A stretch of 64,000 bases of DNA from Pyrinomonadales bacterium (GTDB lineage: Bacteria; Acidobacteriota; Blastocatellia; Pyrinomonadales; Pyrinomonadaceae). The position numbers were made by a program, and so were the translations under genes. Position 1 is the stretch's first letter; each line of letters starts with the position of its first letter. A model generated the notes under the pieces. It saw nothing but the letters and a program-made list of their open reading frames with translations. It was not told the DNA's origin and searched no databases. Of the stretch, positions 2,481 to 63,086 are shown in pieces. The DNA lies in NCBI GenBank assembly GCA_038237345.1, contig JBBRYU010000001.1:375-64374 (forward strand), written 5' to 3'.

Positions 2481-2503
2481 GATGTCGCCTTGCCCGCCGG
2501 ACT

Positions 2504-3454: not shown

Positions 3455-3473
3455 AACGAGACCTCCCTTTCAT

Positions 3474-13903: not shown

Positions 13904-13905
13904 TT

Positions 13906-16035: not shown

Positions 16036-16519
16036 TCGTTCCAGTCGTGGTCGTTCGTTGTCGCGCACGTCTTGGTCTATGTTGTTCGTCTGTACATGGC
16101 GGCCCGTTAACCGCATCACGCGGATTATCAGTGCGGAGCGGGCTAAGGCGACACGTGCCGCCGGACAGTGCGCGCTCCGAGTCAGTACGGCGCGCAGCCC
16201 GGCGTGTTGAACAGCTACGCATGTGGGTTGGCACACGCGCGCGTATGTGGCTAGACACAGTCTGAGCTTGCTATGACCGAGTTGCAGAGCACGCAGTCGG
16301 TTTACCATGGCGCGGAACAAATTATCTGTCTTCGCGTCCGGGGCATCTACGAGTACTCATACGTGGCGCGGGCCGCCACGCCGGGCCGTATCATTGTGTC
16401 CCCGCCCAAAGCCGAAGAGATGTACAATCCTGAAACCTTCGGGCGCGGCGCGACCGACCGCGTGATCGTTGAATGACTGATGAGCAAGAGCGCGACCTCG
16501 CCGCGCGCAGACCAAGCCA

Positions 16520-25108: not shown

Positions 25109-25324
25109 GGCTTGCTCACGGAGGTATTACCGCGACGATGGCAAAAGAGACGCTGCGGAGGCCAAATATTTTGCGTCGCTCTGCCACCGATGTTGTCGCT
25201 TGGAAGCCGACATACTCCGACGCGGTTGCATGAACGCGAGCCCCGGCGCGAAAAATAAATATCCGCCGTGTGGAAACCTGACCCGAACAAGCGCGCATCA
25301 CAGCGCCAATTCGGAGGTAGCCCC

Positions 25325-31300: not shown

Positions 31301-31519
31301 AGTAGCTACGACGTGCTGCCGGATCGCCTCGTCGTCTATCTCTGGCCGCGCGCGGGCGGCACGCAGTTCACATTCACCTTCCGCCCGCGCTACGGGCTGA
31401 GCGCGCAGACCGCGCCGTCAGTGCTATACGACTATTACAACCCGGAGGCGCGCACCATCTTAGCGCCCACGAAGTTCAACTTTAACGAACGCGCACGGAT
31501 AGAACAGGCGCAGCAGTAG
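25325..31519 (+). CDS. alpha-2-macroglobulin family protein (2064 aa) with an intact thioester motif, three GspG-like inserts and a CarboxypepD_reg-like domain
   Basis: Start at MRRRWLALLLCLAVCLVCA (ATG 25325, GGAGG upstream). MG-domain-like N-terminal half. Three DPWG-containing units at about 27850-28680. IHGTITDPAGGAVPGATVQA...DDGTYLVRNLPAGFYSVAVSSPGFK at about 28780-29010. The thioester box GCAEQT has its CAEQ codons at 29873-29884. Confidence 0.85.
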   Translation: MRRRWLALLLCLAVCLVCAVRFVAADDNTLRVNETATQILFSAEQTSVTLAVANDTGRALGVRLRVELLDTHDVVRAAATRAEQLRAGANRVPVVLKPSLLATLNDSERKLILWYRLRYTVTADTGTPVLAAGVISVNQLGTPDLFELHVAAPEYAREGQTIRARVRAAHPLTGQPAPGVNVAGEFTFDGPAGDDVELKAASVTDPEGYAALNFVLPRNVAADEGELQITARRGDFAQAAAQDIHFDHHAQILISTDKPLYQPGQTLHVRALVFTPAKRALAATEAMLTISDPEDKTVFRAPLKTSRFGVASVDWTLPENTRLGDYQLNVKIEDGRYEDSENRATIRISRYDLPNFAVNVKPDRPYYLPGQNAAEVEVRADYLFGEPVKRGHVRVVRETGRKWNYREQKWDIDEAEKWEGETDDAGRFVAHVKLTAAHEDFADENYSRFRDLSYAAYFTDPTTNRTEQRRFDLRLTHDAIHVYVIEGHERQAQDLPFEFYVSTSYPDGSPAECAVALRQPVAEADEQDKDKQAADSAPALRTVRTNKYGVAKVTGLVLPRRVAADAEDVSLRFVARDDKGMTGRHTQQFYPTNNPVIRVATNKALYRPGEPLAVEITANRPELKLVVDVARDFKMLRSEFVQLHDGRATLTLPTNAEFHDEITVAAYTFARLSYDDNDDAYVKGWRTVLFPRRHDLQLDMKLSKDTYQPGEAAHADFRVRDGAGRATESALGIVVFDKAVEERARTDGEFGTNSFYNLYRYWHGTNALAGIARGDLNRLDLAQPLPAGLDLVAEILLRDEGLAPQLFGGLDLNVNESAVFDKLVAAQLAALRQILEGQYVAQALYPADAAAMQRLLSTWGFDFAALRDPWGTPFRVRFAVARENDVLEIVSAGADKRFDTADDFVATRLLRPYFRFTGEAINRAVARFHARTGAYIRDAATLKSELAREGINLDALRDPWGQPYRLSFNAAGKLYLVGVESDGPNGKLDPTNDPHADDFHLWTAQIDYSTDLRARLDTALARHFDVTARFPQDKPEFEAALARAGLAASALSDPWGHPFYVTFRQNARYADRVVVQSYAQYGQQPKERTEITPVTQTVNFINLRSAGPDGQEGTWDDFDVATIFRIITEQGAQDKTPQPARTPVQLTGGSGAIHGTITDPAGGAVPGATVQATHKYSGQVFSATSNDDGTYLVRNLPAGFYSVAVSSPGFKNTVITEVPVQAANLTQLDVRLEVGSVSEAVTVMGGQSGLVETSSTSISSRQITELPVNSRNYVNLAMLKPGIHVVTKPGAETATPRLREYFPETLLWQPSLETDRRGRAQLDFKLADNITTWKLSVFGSTADGEVGAVEREVRAFQPFFVEHDPPRVLTEGDEIMLPVVLRNYLARAQQVAVRMQPADWFTLLTAAELRAQVPAGDATREIFGFRTVASVKDGKQRVTAIGADARDAIEKPISVHPDGEEIAQTSAQLLGANGVLETDVPANAIPRSAHAELKLYPNLLTHVIESVEAILVRPHGCAEQTLSSTYPSLLVLRHYKLLHGNAAQLPPIAVKADKYLRAGYDRLLSYRAPGGGFSYWGRGEADVALTAYAVRFLEDARELLPIDEDALQAARTWLVAQQQKDGSWPAYEGDKKRSDRRTLLLTGYVARVLARHKDETAANKTQTQTPAPTPTAGNDPAPAPQPTALQRALDFLAPHLDEIDEPYFIAAYTIAAVDANAPPAAIAKATARLRTLARREADGSYWALETNTPFYGWGLAGRIETTALAVQALTKAVGSGQAEQGDSLPVDDLLARSTIFLLRNKDRYGVWLSTQATVNVLDALVALSPTRGAGTTDGPAAVVPASRAATEPAEVFVNNQRAGTLLLPADERLDAPLTLDLTRFLTPGQNRIEIKRTGTGKAFAQVVTTYYVPWPQSAGAAATHHAAPQSASALRLAINFDKVKAMTGEEVACRVEAERVGFHGYGMLLAEIGLPPGADVDRASLERAMKESGWELSSYDVLPDRLVVYLWPRAGGTQFTFTFRPRYGLSAQTAPSVLYDYYNPEARTILAPTKFNFNERARIEQAQQ

Positions 31520-31789: not shown

Positions 31790-32818
31790 ATGCGTCTGAC
31801 CGAGATGGTCGCCTGCGCGGGTTGAGCGGCGAAACTCGCGCCGAGCGATCTCGCCCACGTGCTGGGCGGCTTGCACATTCCAAAGTCTGCCAATCTGCTT
31901 GTCGGCATCGAGACGGCGGACGATGCCGGCGTGTATCTGCTGCGCGACGACCTCGCGCTCGTGCAGACCGTGGACTTCTTTACGCCGATTGTTGACGACC
32001 CCTACGACTACGGCCGCATCGCCGCGCTCAACTCGATCAACGACGTGTGGGCCATGGGCGGCACGCCGATTACCGCGCTCGCTGTCACTTGCTTCCCGAA
32101 AAAAGGTCTCGACTTTGCGATCCTCGGCGACATCATGCGCGGCGGCTTGGACGTGTTGACGGAACACGGCGTCGCCCTCCTCGGCGGGCATAGCGTGGAC
32201 GACCAGCAGATCATGTTCGGCTACGCCGTCACCGGCACGATCCACCCGCAACGGATCATTACTAATCGCGCCGCGCAAGTCGGCGACGTGATCATTTTGA
32301 CGAAGCCCATCGGCACGGGCGTCATCTCGACCGGCATCAAATTCGGCAAGGCGAGTGAGCCGGTAATGCGCGCGTCGCTCGACACGATGCTGCTGGCCGG
32401 GCGTGAGGCGGCGGCGGCGATGCAAGAGTTCGGCGCGCACGCGGCGACTGATGTGACGGGCTTCGCGCTGCTCGGTCATGCGTGGGAGTTAGCGCATGCC
32501 AGCAACGTCACCCTTGAACTTGAGGCGGCGCGCGTGCCGCTCATCAACGGCGCGTTGGCGTTAGCCGCGCAAGGGTTGTTGACGAGTGGCGACAAGACGA
32601 ATCGGCGCTATGTCGGCGACGACGTGCGGTTGGGTGATGAGATCAGCCCGGCCGTAGGCAACCTGCTCTTCGACCCGCAGACGGCCGGCGGCCTTTTGAT
32701 CTCCGTCGCGCCGGAGCGCGCCGACGCACTGCTCGCGCGCCTCAGTGAGCGTTACAAGGACGCAAGTATCATCGGGCGTGCGGTCGCGCGCGGCACGCAT
32801 GCCATCGTAGTCAAATAA
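31790..32818 (+). CDS. selD: selenide, water dikinase with an in-frame UGA (selenocysteine) at 31823-31825
   Basis: AAAGGAGG then ATG at 31790. Reads [30 protein letters not shown] and runs in frame into track ORF 31859-32818 (AIR-synthase-like body DDAGVY...[15 protein letters not shown]). The UGA aligns with the catalytic Cys, and a Lys lies at +3 as in the GCGCK loop of E. coli SelD. Confidence 0.85.
31840..31870 (+). other. candidate SECIS-like stem-loop downstream of the selD UGA
   Basis: GCCG/CGGC plus AGCG/UGCU pairing with a GGG bulge and a 12-nt loop, 17-47 nt after the UGA. Found by hand folding only. Confidence 0.3.
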
Positions 32819-38792: not shown

Positions 38793-40370
38793 GTGTTAGT
38801 GAGATACCGCCCCGCTCACCGTTATAAATTTTCCGCCTCATGCGTCGGGTTAACGCTATGCCTCGTCTTGCTCGCGGGCTGCACGGGCAGGCGGTCAAGC
38901 ACCGAGCATGAACTGGTCATCGGCGCGCGTGCCGACGACTACGTGGTCGAACCGCTCAAGTCGAAGCTCGGCATGTATCCGCTCAACGCTCAAATCTGCG
39001 AACCGTTGGTGCGCATCACCGCCGATTACCAAATCGAGCCGCTGCTGGCGGTTCGTTGGGAGCATCGGGGCAACACATGGCGTTTCTTTCTCCGCCCGGG
39101 CGTTGTCTTCTCTAACGGTCAGCCGCTCACGAGTGAGGCCGTCAGGTACACCTTCGCGCGGTTAGTGCAAGGCGACCGCGCCGGAATTTATCAGCACATC
39201 TATCTCGACGAGAATTCGGTCAGTGTAGTGGACGACCTCACGGTAGACATCACGCCCGCGCGCCCGAATGAACGACTGCTCGAACAGCTCGGGCACGCGA
39301 ACTACGGCATTATCGCTCCCGGCACGGAGCCTGCCGCCGAACCGGTTGGGACAGGCCCGTTCAAGCTCGTCGAGTACCAGCGCGGCCAATGGCTCAAGCT
39401 TGAACGCAACGTGCGGTATTGGGGCCAGCGCCCGCCGCTGGGTCGTCTGACCTTTCGCTTCCTGCCCGACGACACGACACGCGTGTTAGCGCTGCAAGCG
39501 GGTGAGGTCGGCATGATCCTCGACGTGCCGCGCGAACAGGCGGCCACGTTACGCGCGCAGAGGGGAACGCGCGTGGTGGAAGCACCCGTGGGTCGCGTCG
39601 CGTCAATCTTCCTCAATATTCACGGTCAGGCGTCCCATGATCTTCTGGCAAACAGGAACCTGCGGCGTGCGCTCGCGCTGGCGCTCGACCGTCGCGCGCT
39701 GATTGAAAAGGTGTGGGAGGGCAACGGCGAGTTGGTCGCAACTATCGGCCCGCGCGCGATGCTCGGCGAACACGGCTCAATGGTAGCGGGCTTTCCCTAC
39801 GATCCGCAGGGGGCGGCACAGTTGCTGACGCAAGCAGGATGGACGCCGGGCGCGGACGGCGTGCGGGTGCGCGAGGGGCGGCGGTTGACGTTGACGATCA
39901 TCGCGTGGCCGGAGTTCGACACGGCGACAATCGAGTTCTTGCAGGGACAACTCGCAACCAGCGGAATCGAATTGCGGATCATGAGATCTCCCGACGCGGC
40001 TTCCTATCAGGCGCGGGTCGAGTCCGGCGAGTTCGATCTCGATCTCGAAGGCGCTAATCAGAATGACGCCAACCCGCTCTTTCTGCCCGCGCTGCGCTTC
40101 TATTCTAAAGCAACCAGCAAGACTGTCCGCTACTTCGCGCCCGGCGGTCGTTTCGATGCGGCCATCGAAGCCGGTCTGGCCGCGAATGAGCGCGGACAGG
40201 TCATGCTCCGCTCTGCCGAAGCGCAGCGCATCCTCGTTGACGAGGAAATTGTCGTCATCCCGCTCGCCGGGCTGAAACGCATCTACGCGATGCGCGCCGA
40301 AGTGCGCGGCTTCACCCCTCATCCTTCGCTGTTGCACCAGCGTTGGGATACGATCTCTGTCGAGCGATGA
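38793..40370 (+). CDS. ABC transporter substrate-binding lipoprotein, family 5 (NikA/DppA/OppA type)
   Basis: Lipobox LLAGC. Family-5 SBP features such as GTGPFKLVEYQRGQWLKLERNVRYWG. Confidence 0.85.
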   Translation: MLVRYRPAHRYKFSASCVGLTLCLVLLAGCTGRRSSTEHELVIGARADDYVVEPLKSKLGMYPLNAQICEPLVRITADYQIEPLLAVRWEHRGNTWRFFLRPGVVFSNGQPLTSEAVRYTFARLVQGDRAGIYQHIYLDENSVSVVDDLTVDITPARPNERLLEQLGHANYGIIAPGTEPAAEPVGTGPFKLVEYQRGQWLKLERNVRYWGQRPPLGRLTFRFLPDDTTRVLALQAGEVGMILDVPREQAATLRAQRGTRVVEAPVGRVASIFLNIHGQASHDLLANRNLRRALALALDRRALIEKVWEGNGELVATIGPRAMLGEHGSMVAGFPYDPQGAAQLLTQAGWTPGADGVRVREGRRLTLTIIAWPEFDTATIEFLQGQLATSGIELRIMRSPDAASYQARVESGEFDLDLEGANQNDANPLFLPALRFYSKATSKTVRYFAPGGRFDAAIEAGLAANERGQVMLRSAEAQRILVDEEIVVIPLAGLKRIYAMRAEVRGFTPHPSLLHQRWDTISVER

Positions 40371-41320
40371 AACGCTACGTACTCATCCGCATTCTTTCTC
40401 TTATCCCCCTCTGGCTCGGCATCTCCGTGCTCGCCTTCGCGTTGAGCAATCTCGCGCCGGGCGACCCGGCGACGGTGATCGCGTACCGTCTCTCGGACGC
40501 GCCGCCGAGCGTGGAGCAGATCGCGGCCATCCGCCGCGAATACCACCTGGACGAGCCGCTACCCGTGCGCTACGCGCGATGGCTCGCCGCGGCGGCGCGG
40601 GGCGACCTCGGAATTTCGTACCGGACAAAAACGTCTGTGCTCAAGGAGCTAGCCGCACACTTTCCCGCGACGCTCCAGATCGCGTGTGCAGCGCTCATCA
40701 TCGCCCTTGTTATCGCCCTACCATTCGGCGTGCTGGCGGCGATGCGGCGCGGCTCCTGGTTCGATCACGGGGCGCGGGTGGGCGCGCTGCTCGGCGCGTC
40801 GTTGCCTGGTTACTGGCTGGGTTATCTGCTGATCCTCATTTTCTCCCTTGTCCTCGGCTGGCTGCCGGTGGCCGGACGCGACGGGGCGGGGTCGGCGGCG
40901 TTACCGGCGCTCACGCTCGGTCTCGGTACGGCGGCGACGCTCGCGCGCCTAACGCGCTCAAGTCTGCTCGAAGTGCTGGGCGAAGACTTCATCCGCACGG
41001 CGCGGGCGAAAGGACTCGGTGAGTGGGCGGTCGTCTGGCGGCACGCATTGAAAAGCGCGCTCATCCCTGTGCTGACTGCGACTGGCATCGCTTTCGGTCA
41101 TCTCCTGGGCGGCGCGGTGATAGTGGAGGAAATCTTCGCGTGGCCCGGCGTCGGACATCTGTTAATGAGCTCGATTTACGACCGTGACTACCCGATGATT
41201 CAGGGCTTTGTGCTTTTTATGGGCACGGTTTTCACGCTGCTCAGTCTCCTCATTGATCTCTCGTACCTGTGGATTGACCCGCGTATTCGTTTGGCAAATG
41301 GCAGGCGGGTGGACTGGTGA
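40367..41320 (+). CDS. ABC transporter permease (NikB/DppB type)
   Basis: ATGA overlap with the SBP stop. MKRYVLIRILSLIPLWLGISVLAFALSNLAPGDP. EAA-like loop FIRTARAKGL. Confidence 0.85.
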   Translation: MKRYVLIRILSLIPLWLGISVLAFALSNLAPGDPATVIAYRLSDAPPSVEQIAAIRREYHLDEPLPVRYARWLAAAARGDLGISYRTKTSVLKELAAHFPATLQIACAALIIALVIALPFGVLAAMRRGSWFDHGARVGALLGASLPGYWLGYLLILIFSLVLGWLPVAGRDGAGSAALPALTLGLGTAATLARLTRSSLLEVLGEDFIRTARAKGLGEWAVVWRHALKSALIPVLTATGIAFGHLLGGAVIVEEIFAWPGVGHLLMSSIYDRDYPMIQGFVLFMGTVFTLLSLLIDLSYLWIDPRIRLANGRRVDW

Positions 41321-42246
41321 GCGGCGAGCGTGAAGTTTTTGCAGACGCGCGGGCGCACCGCGACTCGTTCGACGTGGCGGGGCGCAGGGCGTTATCAACC
41401 GCGTGGCTGGGCGGCGGGCAGCAGGGTGTTCTCCGACGATTGGTGCGCGACCGGGCGGCGGTTGTGGGGCTGGTCATCATCGTGCTGCTCGTGGCGCTCG
41501 CGCTCGCCGCGCCGCTCCTCGCGCCGCACGACCCGGCAGCGCAACACCTCCATGCGCGACTCGCAGCACCGAATCTCACGTTCCCACTCGGCACGGATAA
41601 TCTCGGGCGCTGTCTGTTGAGCCGTTTGCTATACGGCGCGCGTGTGTCGTTGGCGGCGGCGACGGCGGCGGCGTTGCTGGCGTTGCTGATTGGCGTCAGC
41701 GTCGGCGCTATTGCCGGCTATGCGGGCGGGTGGGCAGATGTGGTGATCATGCGGTTTGTGGACTTGCTGCTCGCCTTTCCGCTGCTCGTTTTGGCGCTGG
41801 CGATTACGGGCTTTATCGGTGTCGGTATGGGCAGCGTGCTCGTCGGAGTGGTGAGCGTATGGTGGGCGTCTTATGCGCGCATCGTGCGCGGGCTGATGCT
41901 CTCTTTGCGCGAACGTCCGTTCGTCGAAGCCGCGCGGGCGATGGGCGCAGCCCCTGCCCGCATCATCATTCGTCACCTGCTCCCGAATGTGCTGCCACCC
42001 GTCATCGTGCTTGCCACATTGGAAATGGGCGGTTTGCTCTTAGTCATCTCCGGGCTTAACTTTCTCGGTCTCGGTGTGCAGCCGCCGACGCCGGAATGGG
42101 GCGCGATGCTCAACGACGGGCGACCATTCTTGCGCAGCGCGCCGCAACTGATGATCTACCCGGGCCTGGCGATCAGCCTCGCCGTCATGGCGTGCAACCT
42201 GCTCGGTGACGGACTGCGGGACGCGCTCGATCCATACTTGCAGTAG
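41317..42246 (+). CDS. ABC transporter permease (NikC/DppC type)
   Basis: GTGA overlap with the upstream gene. HPLGTDNLGRC-type motif (FPLGTDNLGRCLLSRLLYGARVSL). FVEAARAMGA loop. Confidence 0.85.
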   Translation: MSGEREVFADARAHRDSFDVAGRRALSTAWLGGGQQGVLRRLVRDRAAVVGLVIIVLLVALALAAPLLAPHDPAAQHLHARLAAPNLTFPLGTDNLGRCLLSRLLYGARVSLAAATAAALLALLIGVSVGAIAGYAGGWADVVIMRFVDLLLAFPLLVLALAITGFIGVGMGSVLVGVVSVWWASYARIVRGLMLSLRERPFVEAARAMGAAPARIIIRHLLPNVLPPVIVLATLEMGGLLLVISGLNFLGLGVQPPTPEWGAMLNDGRPFLRSAPQLMIYPGLAISLAVMACNLLGDGLRDALDPYLQ

Positions 42247-44624: not shown

Positions 44625-45899
44625 TTATCCTTCAGCCGAACAGGCACAGGTGTTGACCTCGCGCACGATCTCGCGCTCGCCGCCGTAGATGTGCGTGGTG
44701 CAGGGCATGCAGGGATCGAAGCTGCGGATGGCGCGGAGCATGTCCACGCCCGTGAAATCCTCCGGGCGCGCGTAGTCTTCGAGGATCGGCGTGTTCAGCA
44801 CGGCCTCTTCGTAGGGGCCGGGGTTGCCGAACGGATCTTTCGGCGAGGCGTTGAAGGTGGACGGCGTGACAATCTGGTAGTTAGTTATTGCGCCCTTATC
44901 TAGCGTCAGGTGGTGCGACAGATAGCCGCGCCCCGCGCCCCAGAAGCCGACGCCGATGCGCTCGCCCATCGGCACCTCGAATTTCGTGCTGACTTTGTCC
45001 TCACCCTTGCGCAAGAGGTCGAACGCCTTCAAGACCATCGTGTAGGCGACCATCAGGTTGTAGCCCATGCAGTAGGCGCGCGCGCGGTTGCGCTCGAAGG
45101 CGTTCCACACCGTGGGAATCTTCCACTCGAAATCCATCTCGCGCAGCATCGTCTTCGGCATGTGAAACTTGAGGCTGTGGCCGGTGGCTTCCATGAACTG
45201 GTTCTTCGGCATCAGCCCGGCGGCGGCGGTCGTCCAGATGCGGGCGTAGGCCCCGGCTTCGACCACCTGCCTGTCCCAGCGCGGCGCGGTGTCCCACGTG
45301 TAGCGATCCTTCCAACTCTCCTTCGACGGCTTCGGCAGCGTCTCTTTATTCCACGGATGATTCGGCGAGAGCGGCGCGCCCGACGGGTCGGTCATAAACC
45401 GCTGTTTGCCGTTTTGGTTCCAGTCTTCGTAATAAGAGTGTTCGACGAACTCTTCGAGACCGAGGTTGAGCTGCTGCAACTTCGTCGTGACGAGTTGGCC
45501 GTCAATGACCGCGCCCGGTGTCGCCCAACGTGCTTCGCCCCACTCGTTGCACCGCGCGTAAGACGCATCGTAAGAGTTCTCGTCGTCCCACATGCCGAGG
45601 TCGATCATGTTTGCCGCCCGCGCGCCGACCTGCTTGTATTCGGGATTGTAGTCGTAGAAGAACTCGGTGAGATCGTCCCATAGCAGGATCATCCGCTTCG
45701 TCCAGTCGATCATCTTCTGGAGCCGCGTGTAGGTCTCGTTGAAGTCCGTGATCGTGACTGTCGAGGACATGCCGCCGGGCACGACCGTCTGCGGGTGCGG
45801 GTACTTGCCGAAAAGCACGGAATAGGCTTCACGCGGTACGCGCGTCATCTTGAGACCATCGAGATACAACTTGCCGGAGAGCGGGTTTAAGCCCTTCAT
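44625..45899 (-). CDS. [NiFe]-hydrogenase large subunit, C-terminal 424-aa part
   Basis: FGKYPHPQTVVPGG region and the C-terminal Ni-binding box RSFDPCMPCTTH. It is in the same frame as 45915-46496, separated only by TAA plus 15 nt. Confidence 0.85.
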   Translation of the reverse strand: MKGLNPLSGKLYLDGLKMTRVPREAYSVLFGKYPHPQTVVPGGMSSTVTITDFNETYTRLQKMIDWTKRMILLWDDLTEFFYDYNPEYKQVGARAANMIDLGMWDDENSYDASYARCNEWGEARWATPGAVIDGQLVTTKLQQLNLGLEEFVEHSYYEDWNQNGKQRFMTDPSGAPLSPNHPWNKETLPKPSKESWKDRYTWDTAPRWDRQVVEAGAYARIWTTAAAGLMPKNQFMEATGHSLKFHMPKTMLREMDFEWKIPTVWNAFERNRARAYCMGYNLMVAYTMVLKAFDLLRKGEDKVSTKFEVPMGERIGVGFWGAGRGYLSHHLTLDKGAITNYQIVTPSTFNASPKDPFGNPGPYEEAVLNTPILEDYARPEDFTGVDMLRAIRSFDPCMPCTTHIYGGEREIVREVNTCACSAEG

Positions 45900-45914
45900 G
45901 ATGTCACCGATAGT

Positions 45915-46496
45915 TTAGAACTGATGAACCTCGGCGTTCGCTGCTTCCGTCACCTTCGCCTTCTCCCACATCGCCGGGGTGGTCGCTTCGACGACGACCT
46001 GCGAGTAGTCCGGGCCGGCGAGCAGGAAGAGATGGAGCGGGTGGTCGTACAGAAAATCGAGCGCGAGCGCGAGATTGCGCAGCACCGTACCGAGCGGCGG
46101 CGGCGAAATCCCGAAGGCCATCTCGATGGCCTCGCAAGCGGCGGTCGAGTGGACGCCGCCGCAGACGCCGCAGGCGCGACTCGAAATATAGATGGCGTCC
46201 CGCGGGTCGCGCCCCTTCAGGATCACTTCGTAGCCGCGAAAGATGGTCGCAATCGAGTTGGCGTCGAGGAACTTGCGCTCCTGCAAATCGGCCACGGCGT
46301 GGAACGAGAGCGCGCCCGCCACGCGCGTCACCGGCGAGATGCTGACATCCTTGATGTGCCCGTTGCGCGCGAGCAGTTCTTCTAGCTTGTCACGCTTGAT
46401 CTCACGCGGTTTGTAGGCGTAAGGGTCAACCATCCCGCCTTTGAGGTGCGCGTTACCCTGCGCGTCGAATTCAACTGGAAGATTCTTGAAGCACAT
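45915..46496 (-). CDS. [NiFe]-hydrogenase large subunit, N-terminal 193-aa part, ending at an in-frame TAA (45917-45915)
   Basis: Contains the L1 box SSRACGVCGGVH. The N-terminal motif reads SPVTRVAGAL instead of the usual PxTRxEGH. Confidence 0.85.
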   Translation of the reverse strand: MCFKNLPVEFDAQGNAHLKGGMVDPYAYKPREIKRDKLEELLARNGHIKDVSISPVTRVAGALSFHAVADLQERKFLDANSIATIFRGYEVILKGRDPRDAIYISSRACGVCGGVHSTAACEAIEMAFGISPPPLGTVLRNLALALDFLYDHPLHLFLLAGPDYSQVVVEATTPAMWEKAKVTEAANAEVHQF

Positions 46497-46950: not shown

Positions 46951-48375
46951 TCAAACTCTCTTCGCCGCTTCCTTCGCCCGATCTTCGGGCAGCACCTGAT
47001 AATCACTGTCACCATAGACACGACCGGGAAGGCTCCGGTGTCCCAGGGGGAACTTCACCTGCGGATTTCGTTCGGGACGCTTCGCACCTTGAAACTGCAT
47101 CGCCTCGTAGAAGACTTCGAGAATCCTGTGCGTGAGCGAAGTGTTGCCCTTCTCCATCGCCCACCCGCTCGGCACCGTGTCGTGCCAGCGTATTTCGCGG
47201 TTGCGCTCGCGCTGGCTGATGCGCCGCAGCGGACGGATGATCGAGCCGAGCAGGCGCGAGGCGTTGCTCGACACGAGCGATCCCGGCGGCGACTTGTAGA
47301 AGGGCGAGAACTTGTCGGGGAAGCCGGGCATCGTGCAGCCGATGCAAGGCGCACCGGAGTTCATGCACCCGCCCATGTGCGCGATAGCGCCCTTCTCCGT
47401 GATGTTGCAGTTGACGACCGGCCCCCAGCAGCCGATCTCCACTAGACACTCCTTGTCGCCGTACTCTTTCGCGAAACTCCCTTCCTCGTAGAAGCCGGCG
47501 CGCACGCAGTGGGTATGTACCGTCTCGGAGAACTGCCACGCCGGGCGACCCAGCTCGTCGAACTCAGGTAGGGGGCCGAGACCTTGCAGGAAGAGGAGAA
47601 TCGCCTGCACCGCGTCGGTGAAGTTGTCGCCGACGGGGGCGCAGCCCGGAATGTTGATGACGGGCAAGCCGAGAGCGGAGCGGTAATCTTTGCCGAGCCA
47701 ATCCATCACGCTCATTGAGCCGGTGATGTTGCCGTAGGCCGCGGGGATGCCGCCCCACGTCGCGCACGTGCCAACGGCGATAACGGCCGCCGCGCCCGGC
47801 GAGAGCCGCTTGATCCACTCGGCGGTCGAGACGCGCCGGCGCTGATTGCTCGGTGCCCAGAGGGGCAGCGAGCCTTCACCGGCGAACGGCTCGCCGCCGG
47901 CGGTCAAATTCTCGTCGGGGATCGAGCCTTCGTAAGCAATGACGTAAGGGCCGTCGAGTTCCCCCCGCTCGGCCATCAACAGCGATTGGATGTAATGGTC
48001 GCCAGCTTCGAGTTGCAGCACGTAGTGGTGCAGGATGACGAGCGGCACGCCCGGAATGGAGCCGGTCAGCAAATCTTCGAGCGCCGGTTCGGTCGCGCCG
48101 CTCACAGAGACGGTGCAGCCGTCGCAACTCATCCCGGCGAGCCAGAAGACGTAGACCTTCTCTAACGGGCCGAGACTAAGCATGGTCTTGCCCTGCGACT
48201 CGTGTATGTCTTCGATCAATTCTTCCGACGTGCGTCGCCCGACGTTGCCAACTTGATCCGGCAGGCTGGTCGTCGATGAAATACGCTGCTTATGACTACC
48301 AGCCTCGCCGCCGTGTTTCTCAGGAATCTCGCCCATTAAATTTCCCTCTCCCCATGCTGTGCCAGCGATGCTCAT
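46951..48375 (-). CDS. [NiFe]-hydrogenase small subunit (long form, no Tat signal)
   Basis: FWLAGMSCDGC, AVGTCATWGGIPAA, NIPGCAP, and the distal cluster CWGPVVNCN...GGCMNSGAPCIGCTMPGFPDKF. There is no RRxFxK plus hydrophobic region. A C-terminal extension of about 110 aa is present. The start overlaps the upstream small gene as ATGA. Confidence 0.85.
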   Translation of the reverse strand: MSIAGTAWGEGNLMGEIPEKHGGEAGSHKQRISSTTSLPDQVGNVGRRTSEELIEDIHESQGKTMLSLGPLEKVYVFWLAGMSCDGCTVSVSGATEPALEDLLTGSIPGVPLVILHHYVLQLEAGDHYIQSLLMAERGELDGPYVIAYEGSIPDENLTAGGEPFAGEGSLPLWAPSNQRRRVSTAEWIKRLSPGAAAVIAVGTCATWGGIPAAYGNITGSMSVMDWLGKDYRSALGLPVINIPGCAPVGDNFTDAVQAILLFLQGLGPLPEFDELGRPAWQFSETVHTHCVRAGFYEEGSFAKEYGDKECLVEIGCWGPVVNCNITEKGAIAHMGGCMNSGAPCIGCTMPGFPDKFSPFYKSPPGSLVSSNASRLLGSIIRPLRRISQRERNREIRWHDTVPSGWAMEKGNTSLTHRILEVFYEAMQFQGAKRPERNPQVKFPLGHRSLPGRVYGDSDYQVLPEDRAKEAAKRV

Positions 48376-49630: not shown

Positions 49631-50428
49631 CTATTTCCCTCCTGCTTCAACGGCGTTGCTTGCGAATTCATGTAGGAGAAAATCTGCCACGCGCGACAGC
49701 TCTGCGACGATGGGAGCAGTCACATCGTAATCAATCACCGCGCGCCCCGTCCTGTCAGCCTCGGTTACGTTCTCATCGAAAGGAATGCCAGCTATTAGTT
49801 GTAAATCGTGCTTACGGCAATATGCCCGGACGGCTTCCTCGTCCTGCGGACTGCGGAGTTTGTTGCCGATGCCGTAGATGCGCTTTAGCCCTAGTTCGCG
49901 CGCGAGCGGCACAGTTCGTCCGGCGGTCTCCATCGAACGATAGTAAGGCTCAAGGACGACGAGCAGCGCGTCAACGTATCTGAGCGTGCCCCGGCTCAGA
50001 TGTTCGATAGAAGCCTCCATGTCCATCACGGTCACGCTCTCTGTACTGTTGACGATCTCACCGACGAGGCTGCGCACGGCAGCGTGTGCGCCGCAGAGTC
50101 AACCCGCGCCCGCGTGATCGACGCGCGTGCCGACCAGCACCGTCACACCGTCGGGGGCCTTCAGCCCGTACTGGCTGATGATCTCGGCCACCGGTCTCGT
50201 CAGCACATGTCGGGTCGCGCCCGTCTCGTCCTCGCGCCGCTCGACGATGCTGCGCGGTATTGACTCGATCTCCACGCCGGGGCCGACGCCCAGAGCCTGT
50301 AAGAGATTAGGATTCGGGTCGCCGTCAATCGCGAGCACGGGCAGACCGCGCCGGGCCAACAGGCGTGTGAGCGTCGCCGAGATGGTAGTTTTGCCGGAAC
50401 CGCCTTTACCACTGACCGCAATCTTCAT
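49631..50428 (-). CDS. CooC-type (MinD/ParA superfamily) nickel-insertion ATPase with an in-frame UGA at 50101-50099
   Basis: Track ORFs 50099-50428 and 49631-50077 share one continuous frame. The joined product is 265 aa: MKIAVSGKGGSGKTT..., AIDGDPNPNL, GTRVDHAGAG-UGA-LCGAHAAVRSLV, VMDMEASIEHLSRGT. The UGA replaces the first Cys of the CooC CxC motif. Confidence 0.75.
50069..50094 (-). other. candidate SECIS-like hairpin after the CooC UGA
   Basis: mRNA GCGCAC-ACGCUGCC-GUGCGC (6 perfect bp, 8-nt loop), extended by 2 bp across one mismatch. The perfect stem begins 7 nt after the UGA. Found by hand folding only. Confidence 0.35.
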
Positions 50429-50593: not shown

Positions 50594-51097
50594 GTGATGA
50601 GAATCCTGATCGCCGGTGTCGGAAATGTGCTGCGGGGCGATGACGGCTTCGGCGTCGAAGTAGCGCAGGCGCTCGCCCGCAACCGTAACCTTCCTGCTAC
50701 CGTCACACTATTCGAGGCTGGGATAGCCGGCATCCCGCTCGTACAGGAGTTGATGGACGGCTACGACGCGCTCATCATCGCGGACGCCGTCGAGCGGGGC
50801 GGCGCGCCGGGCACGATTTATGTTATCGAGCCTGACATTGCCGATCCTGCCCTCCTTGATCCTGCCGCGCTACACGCTTCGTTAGCCGATGCTCATTACA
50901 CGGAGCCGTCAAAAGTCTTAATTCTGGCCAAGGCGTTGAGCGTGTTACCGCCGCAAGTATTCGTCGTCGGTTGCCAGCCGGCGGGCTTCGATGAGTTGGG
51001 GGCTGAACTGAGCGCGCCGGTGCGGGCCGCGGTGCAGTTGGCCGTCCAACGCATAGCAGCGCTGGTCGCGCGCCTGAGTCAGCAAGAGACATTATGA
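50594..51097 (+). CDS. hydrogenase maturation endopeptidase (canonical HybD/HupD type)
   Basis: MRILIAGVGNVLRGDDGFGVEVAQAL, ALIIADAV and DAHYTEP. Its stop overlaps the downstream ABC permease start as ATGA. Confidence 0.85.
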   Translation: MMRILIAGVGNVLRGDDGFGVEVAQALARNRNLPATVTLFEAGIAGIPLVQELMDGYDALIIADAVERGGAPGTIYVIEPDIADPALLDPAALHASLADAHYTEPSKVLILAKALSVLPPQVFVVGCQPAGFDELGAELSAPVRAAVQLAVQRIAALVARLSQQETL

Positions 51098-52101
51098 GAT
51101 TGCGCCGCCGGTTAATCGCACGCTTATCCGGCCGCCTGCTCATCAAGCGTGCCGTGCAATCGGCGCTCTTAATCCTCACGCTCATCATCATCAACTTCCT
51201 GCTGATTCATCTCGCGCCGGGCGACCCTGTGCATATCCTCGCCGGTCAGAGCGGCGACGAAAAATACTACGAGTTCATCCGCGCGCAATTCGGTCTCGAC
51301 CGCCCGCTCGCAACGCAACTCTGGATTTATCTAGCGCGCGTGCTGCGCGGCGACTTCGGCTACTCGCTCGGCTACCAGCAGCCGGTCAGCGCCGTCATCC
51401 TCGCGCGTGTTCCAGCGACGCTCCTGTTAACGCTCAGCGCTGTATCTCTCTCGTCGGTCGGCGGTGTGGCGCTCGGCGTCGAGGCCGCGCGCAGAGAGAA
51501 TTCGCTGACAGATGGCGCGATCAACACCTTCGCGCTGGTGGGCTACTCCGTCCCTTCCTTCTCCATCGGCCATCTGCTGCTCATCGTCTTCGCGCTCCGC
51601 CTCGGTCTCTTCCCCGTGCAAAATATGTCTTCCGCGCAACAGGAGTTGACGGGCGCGGCTTACGGTCTCGACGTGCTCGCGCATCTCGTCTTGCCGGTCG
51701 TGTCGCTCGCCATCGTCTACCTCGCACAGATCATGCGCCTGACGCGCACGGCGATGCTGGGCGTGCTGGGCGAGAACTTCATCACCGCAGCCCGCGCTAA
51801 GGGCTTGCCGGAGCGCCGTGTGCTGTACGGGCACGCGTTGCGGAACGCGCTGTTGCCGATTGTCACGGTCGTCGGCCACGACTTCGGCATGCTGCTGAGC
51901 GGCGCGGTGTTGGTCGAGACGGTGTTCGCGTGGCCGGGTCTCGGCCGGCTAATGATCGATGCGCTCGCCATGCGTGATTACCCGGTCTTGCTGGGGCTGT
52001 TTCTCATGATCTCGATCAGCGTCGTCGTGTTGAATTTCATGATCGATCTGATCTATGCCGCGCTCGATCCGCGCATCAACTATGGACGAACAAGCAAATG
52101 A
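51094..52101 (+). CDS. ABC transporter permease (NikB/DppB type), second set
   Basis: LLIKRAVQSALLILTLIIINFLLIHLAPGDP. FITAARAKGL loop. Confidence 0.85.
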   Translation: MRLRRRLIARLSGRLLIKRAVQSALLILTLIIINFLLIHLAPGDPVHILAGQSGDEKYYEFIRAQFGLDRPLATQLWIYLARVLRGDFGYSLGYQQPVSAVILARVPATLLLTLSAVSLSSVGGVALGVEAARRENSLTDGAINTFALVGYSVPSFSIGHLLLIVFALRLGLFPVQNMSSAQQELTGAAYGLDVLAHLVLPVVSLAIVYLAQIMRLTRTAMLGVLGENFITAARAKGLPERRVLYGHALRNALLPIVTVVGHDFGMLLSGAVLVETVFAWPGLGRLMIDALAMRDYPVLLGLFLMISISVVVLNFMIDLIYAALDPRINYGRTSK

Positions 52102-52979
52102 GGCGCGAGACGATCAACTTACGCGCGCCGGAGAGTTGGGTCATCTGGCACAGCTTCAGGCGCAGCCGGACGGCAGTGGCCGGCGTTATCCTACTGCTGC
52201 TCTTTCTCTGTGCTGCCCTGTTTGCCGCGCAGATCGCGCCGCGCGATCCGCAGCAGACTTCGGCCGCAAGTCTCCGCCCGCCCTCCGCGCAGTTCCTGTG
52301 CGGCACGGACGATCTCGGCCGCGACGTGTTCAGTGGGGTCGTGCATGGCGCGCGTATATCAATCTCGATAGGCGTCACCGTGGCTCTGTTGAGCAGTTTG
52401 CTCGGCGTGTTGATTGGCGCGACGGCGGGCTATGCGGGTGGACTCGTTGACGATCTGTTGATGCGGCTCACGGAGCTTTTCATGATCCCGCCCAGATTCT
52501 TTCTGGCCCTCATCACCGCCGCGCTCTTCGGCTCGACCATGTTCACGCTGATCGCTGTGCTGAGCGTCACCTACTGGCCGCATACGGCGCGACTCGTGCG
52601 GGCGGAAGTCATGTCACTCAAGGAGCGAAGTTTTGTCGAAGCCGCCCGCGCCATGGGCGCGAGTCCCGCGCGCATACTATTTCACGACATCATGCCGAAT
52701 GCCTTGCCGCTCATCGTGACCAACGTCGTGCTAATGGTGGGCGGGGTAATACTTGTCGAAGCGGGGTTGGAATTTATCGGTCTCGGCGACAGCAGGTACA
52801 TCAGTTGGGGCTACATGCTGCACAACGGCGAGCACTTCATCCGCGATGCATGGTGGATCATCTTCTTCCCGGCGCTGGCCATCTCGCTGCTCGTCCTCGC
52901 GCTCAATGCCGTCGGCGACGCCCTCAACCGCGCGCTTGACCCTAAATCGCGGAGAGAAGGTCTCAGTAAAATTATCTGA
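52098..52979 (+). CDS. ABC transporter permease (NikC/DppC type), second set
   Basis: ATGA overlap with the upstream gene. FLCGTDDLGRDVFSGVVHGARISI. FVEAARAMGA loop. Confidence 0.85.
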   Translation: MRRETINLRAPESWVIWHSFRRSRTAVAGVILLLLFLCAALFAAQIAPRDPQQTSAASLRPPSAQFLCGTDDLGRDVFSGVVHGARISISIGVTVALLSSLLGVLIGATAGYAGGLVDDLLMRLTELFMIPPRFFLALITAALFGSTMFTLIAVLSVTYWPHTARLVRAEVMSLKERSFVEAARAMGASPARILFHDIMPNALPLIVTNVVLMVGGVILVEAGLEFIGLGDSRYISWGYMLHNGEHFIRDAWWIIFFPALAISLLVLALNAVGDALNRALDPKSRREGLSKII

Positions 52980-55048: not shown

Positions 55049-56752
55049 TCAATGCATCCGCTTTCTTTTTTGCCAGAGGAGCACGCCCGTCCCAAGGGCA
55101 AGGAACATAACAAAGGCGAGTAGCAGATAGAGACTACGCCGCGGGAAAGAGTCTGACGCCGCGTGGCGACGGTGTTCGTCAGCCGCCCACCACGCGTCTT
55201 GCGCGAAGTAGACGTTGGCTTTCGCGCTCCACAGGTACATCCCCTGCAACCCGGACTTGTAAGCGGCACCGGAGTTCGGTTCGTACAGCCAGAAGTACGG
55301 CACGTCTTTGACGAGGATGTCCTGCGCCTCGAAGTAATAGGCAGTGCGCTTCTGTCTGTCCAACTCGGCGGCCGCGCGCGCGAACAGTTCGTCAACTCTT
55401 GGGTTGCGATAGCCCGCGCCGTTAGAAAAAGGGATCGGCCCGATGTTTGATGAGACGACCGTGCGCTTAACGCCGATGTCCGGATCGGGGCCGTTCTCGA
55501 AAGAGGCGAAACCCAGATCGAAATCCTTTTTGATATAGACGGCGTCAACCGCCGCGGCGAACTCCATCAGTTGCAGGTCAACCGCGATGCCCACCTCGCG
55601 CAACTGATCGCGGACAGCTTCGGCCACCTTCGCGTAAGAGGATGCGTGGACAAACCTCAGATGAAACCGTATCCCCTCAGCAGCGCGCTTGTAGCCGGCT
55701 TCGTCGAGCAGTTGGTTGGCACGGGCGACGTTATGCTCATACTTGGCCACGTTTGGGTTATACGCCCAACCGAGACTGTGTGACACCGGCCCGGTGGCGG
55801 CAACGCCCTGCCCAAACAAAACCTTTGCCACTAAGAAGTCCTTATCAAGCGCGTGCGCCATCGCTTGCCTGACGCGCAAGTCAGAGAGCGGCGCTCGTGT
55901 GAGGTTCGGAACGAGCGTCTCGACGGTGGCATAGCCTTCGCGGCCTTTGTCGGTGACGACGACACCGGGCGTGCTCTTCAGCCGCGCCAAGTCGAGCGGC
56001 GACGCGCCTAATAAATAATCCACCTCGCCGCGCTCAAACGCGATGGTGGCCAGCGCGCCGCTCGGCATGACCTTGTACACGATGCGATCCAGATACGGTT
56101 TGCCCTGTTTGAAATACCGTTCGTTGCGCACCAGCGTCAGGTGATCGCCCTTCAGCCACGCCTGAAACTTGAACGGCCCGCTGCCGACGGGATTCGTGTT
56201 ATGCGGGTTCGTGAGCGGATCGGTGTTTTCGTATAAGTGCTTCGGCAGCACGGGCGCGTTGGTTACGTCAACGAGTTGGAGAAAGGCGGCGTATGGTCGG
56301 TCGAACTCAAAGACGACGGTGTGCGAGTCGGGCGTGGTGATGCGGCGCAGATTGTCGCCTATCGAACTGCGTGTGCGCGAGTGGTACTTCAACAACAGTT
56401 GCTCGAACGTAAAGCGCACGTCTGCCGAGGTGACGGGCACGCCGTCGTGGAAAACTGCGGTGGGCGCGAGGTGGAAAGTGTACGCCCGCCCGTCGCGCGA
56501 GACCTCCCAGCGTTCGGCCAGGTCGGGCACAGGATTCAACTTGAAGTCGTGCGCCACTAGCCCACTGAAGATCGAGCCGCAGATGAGATGCACACCGCCC
56601 TGCGTCGTGATGGCGGGGTTAAGTCCGCCGGGGTCTGACGAGATGGCGACGACGACGCTGCCGCCGTAGCGAGACTCTTGCCCATGTGCTGAGACGAGTA
56701 AAAACGCATGAGTAAGTAGGAAAATGAAAATGATTCGCGCACTCTTGAACAT
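55049..56752 (-). CDS. ABC transporter substrate-binding protein, family 5, second set
   Basis: Start MFKSARIIFIFLLTHAFLLVSAHG (ATG 56752). GSGPFKFQAWLKGDHLTLVRNERYF. Confidence 0.85.
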   Translation of the reverse strand: MFKSARIIFIFLLTHAFLLVSAHGQESRYGGSVVVAISSDPGGLNPAITTQGGVHLICGSIFSGLVAHDFKLNPVPDLAERWEVSRDGRAYTFHLAPTAVFHDGVPVTSADVRFTFEQLLLKYHSRTRSSIGDNLRRITTPDSHTVVFEFDRPYAAFLQLVDVTNAPVLPKHLYENTDPLTNPHNTNPVGSGPFKFQAWLKGDHLTLVRNERYFKQGKPYLDRIVYKVMPSGALATIAFERGEVDYLLGASPLDLARLKSTPGVVVTDKGREGYATVETLVPNLTRAPLSDLRVRQAMAHALDKDFLVAKVLFGQGVAATGPVSHSLGWAYNPNVAKYEHNVARANQLLDEAGYKRAAEGIRFHLRFVHASSYAKVAEAVRDQLREVGIAVDLQLMEFAAAVDAVYIKKDFDLGFASFENGPDPDIGVKRTVVSSNIGPIPFSNGAGYRNPRVDELFARAAAELDRQKRTAYYFEAQDILVKDVPYFWLYEPNSGAAYKSGLQGMYLWSAKANVYFAQDAWWAADEHRRHAASDSFPRRSLYLLLAFVMFLALGTGVLLWQKRKRMH

Positions 56753-57096
56753 AAACACACCAATGAGCCATTTCTGCAATAGCAAGGTGGCTGCGTAGCA
56801 GAACGCGCAGGCTCACCAAGGCACGCAATTCCCCTATAGCTCCCTGCCTGCCGGCACAAAGCCGTGACCTCTGTGTAAGCTCGTGCAAAATTAACTTTAA
56901 CTATATCATCAACCGGCGGCTTGGGAATTCCGCTAAATTAAAGCATCCCAACAGATGCTAAACGCATCTATGCCTATCTGCTTGAGAAGGCAGAGGATAT
57001 ACTAACTTGTGCGACCTGATGCTGACCCGTACAATGGGCCTTGCACGGACTTTCACGCCGTGTGCCGCCCAGCGACGGCTCAAGCGATAGTGGAAG

Positions 57097-61975: not shown

Positions 61976-63086
61976 ATGATCGAGACTTTATCAACCCAAG
62001 AGTTGCGCGCAAGCTATGACGACCTGCGCACGCGCGTCGAGCAACTCGGGAGGTTTCTTTGATGTCGCGGCGAAGCAAGATGAATTAGCGCGCATTGAGA
62101 CGCAAGCTTCTGCGCCAGATTTCTGGCAGGATCAAGAGGCGGCGCAGAAATTGTTGCAGCAGCGCAGCCGCGTGGAGAAAGTTGTCACGCGCCACCGCCA
62201 GTTCGAGTCCGAGATTGCGGACGCGGGCGTGCTCTTTGAATTCGCGGAGGAAGACGAAGCGAGTCTCGGCGAGTTGCGCCAACTGCTCGCCCGACTTGAA
62301 CAAGAGATCGGCGCGGCCGAGACCGAAATGCTGCTCTCCGGCGACAACGACGCCTTGCATGCCATCTGCACCATTCATCCTGGCGCGGGCGGCACGGAGT
62401 CGCAGGACTGGGCCGAGATGCTCCTGCGCTTGTATCTGAAGTGGGCCGAGCGGCGCGGCTTCAAGACCGAAGTGATCGACTACCAACCGGGCGAAGAAGC
62501 CGGCCTCAAGAGCGTCACGTTCCGCGTCGAAGGCGAATACGCTTACGGTCTCTTGTCCGCCGAAGCGGGCGTGCATCGGCTCGTGCGCATCTCGCCGTTC
62601 GATCAGGCGGCGCGGCGACACACGTCGTTCGCTTCGCTCTTCGTCTATCCTGAGATCGACGAGAACATCGAGGTTGAGATCAACGATAAAGACTTGCGCG
62701 TCGATACTTATCGCGCGACCGGCGCGGGCGGACAGCACATCAACACGACCGATTCGGCCGTGCGCATCACGCACCTGCCCACGAACATCGTCGTCCAGTG
62801 TCAGAACCAACGCTCGCAACATCAGAATCGCGCTGTCGCCATGCAAGTCTTGCGCGCACGCCTCTACGAACTCGAACTGGAAAAGCGCCGCGCCGAGACC
62901 AGCGCGCTCGAAGCGAACAAGGCCGACATCTCGTTCGGCTCGCAGATCAGAAACTACGTGCTGGCGCCCTACCGGCTCGTTAAGGACACGCGCACCAAAC
63001 TTGAGCGTGGAGATGTTGACGCGGTGCTGGCCGGTGACATAGACGATTTCATCAAAGCCTATCTGCTCGCCCAGCGAGCGGCATAG
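61976..63086 (+). CDS. prfB: peptide chain release factor 2, with the programmed +1 frameshift at CTT TGA (62057-62062)
   Basis: Frame 0 reads MIETLSTQELRASYDDLRTRVEQLGRFL-TGA, with an internal SD-like GGGAGG at 62048-62053. The +1 frame continues as DVAAKQDELARIETQASAPDFWQD... It carries the RF2 motifs SPF and GGQHINTTDSAVRITH. Confidence 0.9.

Follow-up and report, generated by a model that had tools for sequence, protein, structure and literature searches.

The subject of this analysis is a stretch of 64,000 nucleotides from a Pyrinomonadales bacterium (Acidobacteriota; GenBank assembly GCA_038237345.1, contig JBBRYU010000001.1, positions 375 to 64,374; hereafter the window), in which one gene very probably encodes a full-length CooC-type ATPase whose codon 110, an in-frame UGA, is read as selenocysteine (Sec), and which would act as the nickel-delivering nucleoside triphosphatase (NTPase) of the [NiFe]-hydrogenase encoded beside it. 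Translation of the minus strand from 50428 to 49631 yielded a single frame of 265 codons followed by TAG, with one internal stop, the TGA at 50101-50099, which lies between GTRVDHAGAG and LCGAHAAV in the protein. Two mechanically listed open reading frames (ORFs; 50099-50428 and 49631-50077) are pieces of this one CooC-like frame, as a first-pass annotation made from the letters of the window had already proposed. In public databases, the gene is split accordingly into a 109-residue “CO dehydrogenase maturation factor” and a 148-residue “hypothetical protein”. Two database models of 208-218 residues (P0001 and P0003) skip the UGA region entirely, and one model from JGI (P0008) translates the codon-110 TGA as Trp.

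Sequence and structure comparisons were used to place the joined product. The top sequence match in the PDB was CooC1 of Carboxydothermus hydrogenoformans (3KJE, E 9.4e-30), which aligned over residues 1-231, while Mrp, MinD and NifH proteins gave weaker matches (E 1e-6 to 1e-3) confined to the P-loop region. In the CooC1 alignment, U110-L-C112 falls on C112-Y-C114 (GSQCYC), with the TGA on the first cysteine, Cys112. The segments MKIAVSGKGGSGKTT (Walker A), AIDGDPNPN and VMDMEASIEHLSRG are all present, and their residues are invariant in 48 homologues, as are G109, C112 and H115. Four full-length orthologues share the 265-codon frame. The claims of the first-pass annotation that the product is a full-length CooC/MinD-like ATPase, that it carries these three motifs and that the TGA stands where CooC proteins have the first cysteine of their nickel-binding CxC motif were all upheld by these comparisons. 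The packing that it had described behind the gene was also found, the next gene beginning with an ATG (49629) 1 nt past the TAG and its GGAGG lying within the 3' end of the CooC-like gene.

Against Pfam, the protein matched only the general CbiA/MinD/ParA P-loop domain and no cobW, HypB or UreG profile; its Walker A is of the MinD type, and a scan for G3E GTPase motifs was negative. No model of NCBIfam release 20 reached its cut-off, the CobW-related selenoprotein model NF041053 included. A structure model was generated for P0004, a 55%-identical Cys homologue, as a proxy for the window protein. This model, with a predicted local distance difference test (pLDDT) score of 88.9, found its best fold match in CooC1 3KJE (template modeling score 0.74-0.77, Foldseek), followed by MinD, FleN and the nitrogenase Fe protein. 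JGI names relatives of the protein “CO dehydrogenase maturation factor”. Judged by its Walker A, switch regions, metal motif and closest relatives, the protein appears to fit the CooC class (COG3640), with nickel binding and ATPase activity as predicted properties. We would nonetheless file it as a hydrogenase-associated CooC-like subfamily, CooC-like in its working and with a predicted nickel function, because its neighbors are [NiFe]-hydrogenase and hyp genes rather than cooS/acs.

The UGA is conserved far beyond the window. A protein search gave seven clusters, each exactly 148 residues long and 81-99% identical to the C-terminal half; other assemblies therefore break at the same place. Six of those contigs (L001-L006) were compared with the window; their sources are NCBI metagenome-assembled genomes (MAGs), a metagenome from JGI and three unrelated runs assembled in Logan. 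These six and a further locus (L087) all carry TGA at the same codon as the window gene (7/7), with synonymous differences nearby in L001-L006. A species scan, in which each GTDB species was represented by one genome, gave 80 loci related to the CooC-like gene. Codon 110 is TGA in 48 of these and TGC or TGT in the remaining 32, and identity to the window protein among the TGA forms falls to 47%. In total, the window gene shares the position of its TGA codon with 55 other independent contigs, whose samples and assemblers are unrelated.

Genomes with the UGA form belong to the Acidobacteriota (Pyrinomonadaceae, Blastocatellia and Chloracidobacterium) and Chloroflexota (Chloroflexia, Tepidiformaceae and Limnocylindria), with one Actinomycetota MAG and one Vulcanimicrobiota MAG in addition, and those with the Cys form to the Bacteroidota, Rhodothermales and Dormibacterota. 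The motif reads G-U-L-C-x-x-H in the UGA forms versus G-C-[ML]-C-x-x-H in the Cys forms. Of 47 full-length database homologues, 46 have Cys in the UGA column, and the one exception reads W, itself from TGA. In a rough neighbor-joining tree, Cys forms (Ktedonobacteraceae, Dormibacterota and P0004) were nested within UGA-form clades, which, as far as such a tree can indicate, is the usual pattern of Sec/Cys exchange. The Sec/Cys pair that the first-pass annotation had singled out as the comparison to make is thus present among these genomes. Two loci of the scan stood apart. In one, a close relative (L053 8001-8652, Acidobacteria MAG9), the matched region contains four in-frame stops, the conserved TGA among them, which may point to decay or a frameshift of this copy, or to an indel in the assembly. 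In the other (L024, labeled a Heliobacteriaceae MAG), both the CooC-like gene and the hydrogenase cluster fall with Blastocatellia (L025), which could reflect either a mistaken taxonomic label or transfer of the cluster.

A short hairpin resembling a bacterial Sec insertion sequence (SECIS) follows the UGA. RNAalifold, run on the 48 UGA forms, independently predicted a hairpin at +19..+33 in which positions +19..+23 pair with +29..+33 (5 bp) around a loop at +24..+28, with the loop separated from the UGA by 20 nt. Across the UGA forms 98.3% of hairpin cells are paired, compared with only 38% in the same columns of the 32 Cys forms and 7-52% in slid registers. At one position of the stem, U-A (36 sequences) alternates with C-G (12), and at another the pair is G-C (32), A-U (12), U-A (2) or G-U (1); none of 500 shuffles reached the observed pairing or covariation score. 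These compensating changes link first codon positions (Ala/Thr/Ser117 and Ser/Gly120) to synonymous third positions (Ala116 and Arg119), a coupling that selection on the protein alone does not explain. In the published model of bacterial SECIS elements, the loop has 3-9 nt and the stem 4-16 bp, loop position 1 or 2 is a G with G or U next after it, the distance to the UGA is 16-37 nt, and the minimum free energy is at most -7.5 kcal/mol (PMC13188914). With a 5-nt loop carrying GU at positions 2-3, a 5-bp stem and a spacing of 20 nt, the hairpin fits the structural terms of this model.

The GC hairpin that the first-pass annotation had placed 7 nt downstream of the UGA can indeed form in the window sequence. 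Its register was wrong and had no comparative support: this 6-bp stem (+11..+16/+25..+30) is 76.7% paired, 128 of 500 shuffles were as good, and it was replaced by the hairpin at +19..+33. The check for a SECIS element that the first-pass annotation had suggested ended on a different structure, a covarying hairpin that lies within the published constraints (nearly so for energy) and is absent from the Cys forms.

The selD gene of the window provides context for this hairpin. It encodes a selenophosphate synthetase that is itself a selenoprotein, and its UGA must also be decoded, as had been noted in the first pass. The hairpin 32 nt after the selD UGA shares its CGUGC loop and 5-bp stem with that of the CooC-like gene. 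Six hairpins with this stem length and loop occur in 128 kb (both strands), and only those of the CooC-like gene and selD have a TGA 16-37 nt upstream; the shared loop suggests a lineage-specific SECIS type. The presence of a Sec-dependent selD would imply the remaining Sec machinery. Elsewhere UGA is an ordinary stop in this organism, since release factor 2 (RF2) is encoded and TGA terminates 9 of the 23 domain-supported genes in the window. The RF2 gene, prfB, is one uninterrupted ORF that covers profile positions 8-352.

The CooC-like gene heads a [NiFe]-hydrogenase operon, as the first-pass annotation had stated, with genes for both subunits downstream (Table 1). The best PDB match of the large subunit was the group 1h enzyme 5AA5 (E 4.9e-152), and its DPCMPC end identifies it, by sequence, as a [NiFe] and not a [NiFeSe] enzyme. 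With tblastn, genes for the small and large subunits, the transmembrane (TM) ORFs, the protease and the NifU/Rieske protein were found beside the ATPase gene in nearly all 80 loci, in Sec and Cys forms alike. The TM genes, which were called as 96-102 aa in L001-L003 and L087 and found by tblastn in most loci, lie 5' of the small-subunit gene in Acidobacteriota; in Chloroflexota and Bacteroidota they separate it from the large-subunit gene. The divergent endopeptidase followed by its permease pair is also kept in L001, L002 and L087. No carbon monoxide dehydrogenase gene was present among the annotated neighbors of the CooC-like genes, and a link to cooS/acs was accordingly not found. In three annotated distant loci (L087, L068 and L088), hypF, hypC, hypD and hypE stand beside the ATPase gene, and neither hypA nor hypB was found nearby.

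The gene content recalls a hydrogenase cluster described previously. In the published group 1l (Hyl) cluster, several short TM ORFs accompany the structural genes, as do a HupD protease and the Rieske-type HylE, and the large subunit is a relative of group 1h; the group 1l hydrogenase has been reported as the main oxidizer of atmospheric H2 in Antarctic soils. Matched by gene content to that description, the cluster in the window is probably that of a group-1l-like, oxygen-tolerant [NiFe]-hydrogenase. An in-frame TAA (45917-45915), which the first-pass annotation did not mention, interrupts the large-subunit gene in the window, at a position where twelve close relatives have Lys (AAA/AAG). It is either a nonsense mutation of one base or an assembly error, confined to the window contig, and it leaves the conclusion on the family as a whole unaffected. 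The same TAA was considered as a second recoding site and rejected, the relatives having Lys there.

Table 1 Coordinates of the CooC-like gene, its elements and the associated genes in the window (loci outside the window carry their own numbering).
Feature	Position	Strand	Remarks
CooC-like (MinD/SIMIBI-type) ATPase gene, predicted Sec at codon 110	49631..50428	-	Pfam CbiA 9e-18; CooC1 3KJE; orthologues of the same length
AGGAG Shine-Dalgarno sequence of the CooC-like gene	50440-50436	-	Precedes the ATG
Deviant Walker A GKGGSGKTT with signature Lys8	50384..50410	-	G7, K8, G9, G10, G12, K13, T14 and T15 invariant
In-frame UGA, predicted U110, first position of U-L-C	50099..50101	-	Aligns to the CxC of CooC1
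Cys112 (50095-50093) and invariant His115 (50086-50084), completing U-x-C-x-x-H	50084..50095	-	Homologue alignment
SECIS-like hairpin GCUGC-CGUGC-GCAGC	50069..50083	-	RNAalifold; covariation
selD, selenophosphate synthetase	31790..32818	+	UGA at 31823-31825
selD hairpin GCCCA-CGUGC-UGGGC	31853-31867	+	32 nt after the selD UGA; 5-bp stem
prfB, release factor 2	62016..63086	+	TIGR00020, 510 bits against a cut-off of 370
Four short single-helix membrane-protein genes (HylTM-like)	~49629-49321, 49343-49017, 48969-48664, 48662-48372	-	Conserved in relatives
[NiFe]-hydrogenase small subunit	46951..48375	-	Oxidored_q6, NiFe_hyd_SSU_C
[NiFe]-hydrogenase large subunit, C-terminal DPCMPC (Cys, not Sec)	44625..46496	-	Best PDB match 5AA5
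Maturation protease-like gene	44562-44029	-	Hydrogenase cluster
NifU/Rieske protein, HylE-like	44032-43091	-	Hydrogenase cluster
Hydrogenase maturation endopeptidase (HupD/HycI type)	50594..51097	+	Divergent; two ABC permease genes follow
hypF, hypC, hypD and hypE in L087 (acidobacterial, Sec form)	1925-7494		Beside the ATPase gene
hypF, hypC, hypD and hypE in L068 (Bacteroidota, Cys form)	8770-14888		Beside the ATPase gene
hypF, hypC, hypD and hypE in L088 (Haloferax, Cys form)	11539-16744		Beside the ATPase gene

Two sets of genes for family-5 substrate-binding proteins and permeases flank the hydrogenase cluster (38793-42246, plus strand; 51094-52979, plus strand; 55049-56785, minus strand). 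Their best NCBIfam matches were NikA nickel-binding proteins, below the cut-offs, and no ATPase subunits were seen adjoining them. In the close relative L002, a HicA/HicB toxin-antitoxin pair (6896-7329) is located between the small- and large-subunit genes. The window further contains a gene for a HaeIII-type restriction endonuclease (16520-17554, plus strand) and two very long ORFs of 2661 and 2083 residues (3474-11459, minus strand, and 25268-31519, plus strand, respectively).

The function of the protein can be sketched from CooC1, whose two CxC motifs, one from each subunit, we take to form a nucleotide-controlled Ni/Zn site at the dimer interface. In the CooC-like protein, the short SECIS hairpin 20 nt past the UGA would direct decoding, with SelB and tRNA-Sec inserting Sec at codon 110. 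Sec would thereby replace the first cysteine of CxC, and the two U-x-C motifs of a dimer would offer a nucleotide-gated metal site of two Se and two S, as CooC1 does with C-x-C. The invariant His115, which is absent from CooC1, could supply an extra ligand. The client would be the large subunit of the adjacent hydrogenase, to which the ATPase, filling the role of HypB, would deliver nickel. A nickel-inserting role is proposed because the three annotated clusters contain hypCDEF and no HypA or HypB was seen, which leaves no other candidate for the nickel step. CooC and HypB have a very similar architecture, with a metal site that is separate from, and coupled to, the nucleotide site (PMC9164220). 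One can only speculate on why selenium should be used here. At neutral pH a selenolate is in its deprotonated state, and once oxidized it is more easily re-reduced, properties that would suit a metal-transfer site working in air.

Several explanations would dispense with Sec altogether. If the UGA simply terminates, the gene would be split into a 109-residue P-loop fragment and a 148-residue fragment starting from the GTG at 50077. Gene callers give exactly these two ORFs in every database, and a GTG stands 7 codons past the TGA in most sequences. Such a split is nevertheless very unlikely. The residues between the TGA and the GTG are under constraint, since across the 48 UGA forms Leu111 (CTC/CTT/CTA/CTG), Cys112 (TGC/TGT) and His115 (CAC/CAT) vary only synonymously; codon 118, the supposed restart, is GTT and no start codon in L039, L044, L045 and L049, and it lies inside the conserved hairpin loop without a Shine-Dalgarno sequence before it. 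A split would also remove the CxC motif that is invariant in all Cys homologues, and the UGA column is itself Cys in 32 relatives. Least probable of all is that the TGA is a pseudogene lesion or a sequencing or assembly error of the window contig. The adjoining large-subunit gene does carry its unique nonsense TAA where relatives have AAA/AAG, and the relative L053 shows several stops, but the identical TGA recurs in the 55 other contigs from unrelated samples and assemblers. Moreover, the ratio of nonsynonymous to synonymous substitution rates (dN/dS; Nei-Gojobori, six orthologues) is 0.014-0.13 over residues 1-109 and 0.05-0.13 over residues 111-250, i.e., 0.01-0.13 on both sides of the UGA, while dS reaches saturation. 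Because of this ratio, the purely synonymous variation at codons 111, 112 and 115 and the GTT at codon 118, coding constraint around the UGA would exclude both a pseudogene and a two-polypeptide arrangement. The first-pass annotation, which had argued against a pseudogene and had itself raised separate truncated products as an alternative, is sustained on the former point; the latter is disfavored, with codons 111-117 constrained and four lineages having GTT at the restart. A third explanation dispenses with selenium and has a standard amino acid (Trp, Cys or Gly) inserted at the UGA by a reassigned code or leaky near-cognate decoding; it could draw on the Trp in the JGI model P0008 and on the C that follows every UGA at codon 110, UGA-C being a weak termination context in E. 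coli. It is highly improbable given that RF2 is encoded and 9 of the 23 domain-supported genes end in TGA, that the covarying hairpin downstream of the codon is restricted to UGA forms, and that a hairpin with this loop also stands after the selD UGA, a classic site of Sec. The lineages carrying the UGA form are not known to have recoded UGA.

The main functional rival accepts the selenoprotein and would assign it a role other than nickel insertion, e.g., as an Fe-S carrier or inserter for an unusual small subunit, in positioning or assembling the hydrogenase on the HylTM membrane proteins, or as a Se-S redox switch. After CooC1, the fold neighbors of the modeled homologue include MinD and FleN as well as the Fe protein of nitrogenase, whose dimer interface is bridged by a 4Fe-4S cluster; the gene lies directly 5' of four membrane-protein genes, and the invariant His115 is outside the CooC1 motif. 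We consider such a role unlikely, though distinctly less so than the explanations without Sec, as the sequence is far closer to CooC1 than to Mrp, MinD or NifH, the Sec/Cys pair falls exactly on the Ni/Zn ligands of CooC1, and, with hypCDEF present and HypA/HypB not seen, the nickel step would be left without another candidate.

A number of observations weigh against a selenium-containing nickel inserter as proposed above. The 64-kb window and the fetched loci showed no selA, selB or tRNA-Sec. Run on the window and 88 loci, ARAGORN detected no tRNA-Sec, the only tRNA of the window being tRNA-Glu, which was also the sole Rfam match there at gathering thresholds. All UGA-form sequences derive from MAGs or metagenomes and none from a cultured strain. 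The hairpin is short, with a core of -6.4 kcal/mol that is weaker than the -7.5 limit (consensus -7.96), a minimum-free-energy fold of 81 nt did not exceed shuffled sequences in stability (z = +1.8) and carried no information in this 62% GC region, and L041 (Actinomycetota) breaks two of the five hairpin pairs and needs a bulged variant. The presence of selenium in the protein is predicted from sequence comparison, and nickel binding by selenium would follow by analogy from about 30% identity to CooC1. Signature motifs of HypA/HypB were not found in 1.06 Mb of loci, with the HypC motif as positive control in 32 loci, a negative that covers about 10 kb of flank per locus and relies on these motifs; the absence of HypA/HypB from the clusters is suggestive only. 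Finally, the TAA in the large-subunit gene means that the client enzyme in the window genome may be inactive, or the contig may be in error.

Of the characterized systems, CooC1, which matures the Ni,Fe CO dehydrogenase (PDB 3KJE, 3KJG, 3KJH and 3KJI), is the best match in sequence and fold. The two proteins share the Walker A with Lys8, switch I, a switch II of the form DMxAxIEHLxRG and a metal motif at the same columns. They differ in the motif itself (GSQCYCRENS in CooC1), where the CooC-like protein has a predicted Sec for the first cysteine and an invariant His after it (U-L-C-x-x-H). Neighboring genes also differ, being those of a [NiFe]-hydrogenase and hyp genes instead of cooS/acs, as do the hosts, which are aerobic soil phyla and not anaerobic carboxydotrophs. 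With HypB, including the G3E form and the Mrp/MinD type of Thermococcus kodakarensis (PDB 3VX3 and 5AUN-5AUQ), the CooC-like protein would share a nucleotide-driven dimer that hands nickel to the large subunit. Work on Thermococcus HypB reportedly established that a MinD-type ATPase can serve a hydrogenase. Unlike HypB, the CooC-like protein is not a G3E GTPase, has no motif of the ENVGNLVCP type and was not seen with a HypA partner nearby, and its similarity to T. kodakarensis HypB 3VX3 is confined to the P-loop (E 3.7e-5).

Precedents for selenium are found in two other systems. The CobW-related selenoprotein (NF041053) belongs to the COG0523/CobW family of NTPase metallochaperones and has a Sec motif UxxC (PMC13188914). 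It is the only catalogued selenoprotein of an NTPase metallochaperone family and comes closest to a precedent for selenium in an NTPase that handles metal traffic; it is a G3E GTPase with another motif and no hydrogenase link, unlike the CooC-like protein, a MinD-type ATPase. In [NiFeSe] hydrogenases, Sec ligates nickel and its use has been tied to oxygen robustness (PMC13188914). There, as in Desulfovibrio vulgaris Hildenborough (PDB 2WPN and 5JSH), Sec is part of the catalytic large subunit, whereas here it would be located in an accessory ATPase and the large subunit has Cys. The published group 1l cluster is similar in its short TM ORFs, Rieske-type protein, maturation endopeptidase and a large subunit closest to 5AA5, and the shared phyla include Bacteroidota, Chloroflexota and Acidobacteriota. 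Its description leaves conserved extra ORFs unlabeled and mentions neither a CooC-like ATPase nor selenium. In the Acidobacteriota loci, unlike that cluster, the TM genes precede the small subunit and are not placed between the subunits.

A review from 2026 compiles 119 prokaryotic selenoprotein families and subfamilies, among which there is no CooC, CbiA or MinD-type ATPase (PMC13188914). A CooC-like selenoprotein is likewise unmentioned in the main text and supplements of deep-Sep, the main text of BSepDB and the preprint by Haft (2022) on eight unexpected families. Literature searches combining CooC with selenoprotein or selenocysteine returned incidental co-occurrence only, and nothing relevant was retrieved on Sec-containing nickel metallochaperones or on CooC in uptake-hydrogenase clusters. 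The remark in the first-pass annotation that CooC is not among the described bacterial selenoprotein families thus agrees with the 2026 catalogue, deep-Sep, the main text of BSepDB and NCBIfam release 20. The hydrogenase-associated, Sec-bearing branch of CooC ATPases would accordingly constitute a new selenoprotein family. More tentatively, and with about as much doubt as confidence, it may be the first Sec-containing nickel metallochaperone, a CooC-derived ATPase that replaced the HypA/HypB nickel step for group 1l hydrogenases with a selenolate nickel site and so made the scavenging of atmospheric H2 dependent on selenium.

With few exceptions, the prokaryotic selenoproteins catalogued so far are redox enzymes or small proteins of the thiol type, and Sec in the metal-transfer site of a P-loop metallochaperone would put selenium to another use. 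Nor is the family rare, the UGA form being present in more than half of the closest species-level genomes (48/80) and in phyla that dominate oligotrophic and desert soils. It has been mis-annotated as two fragments, and surveys of selenoproteomes and of hydrogenase maturation therefore both miss the gene. Group 1l hydrogenases would be what allows aerobic bacteria of soils and deserts to subsist on atmospheric H2; in Acidobacteriota, Chloroflexota and allied phyla, the nickel site may be built from selenolates, with Sec keeping metal transfer working in air. If the proposed role is correct, the missing nickel-insertion factor of these hydrogenase clusters would be identified, a natural Sec/Cys pair would become available for asking what selenium contributes to nickel handling in the presence of oxygen, and the availability of selenium would be linked to trace-gas metabolism.

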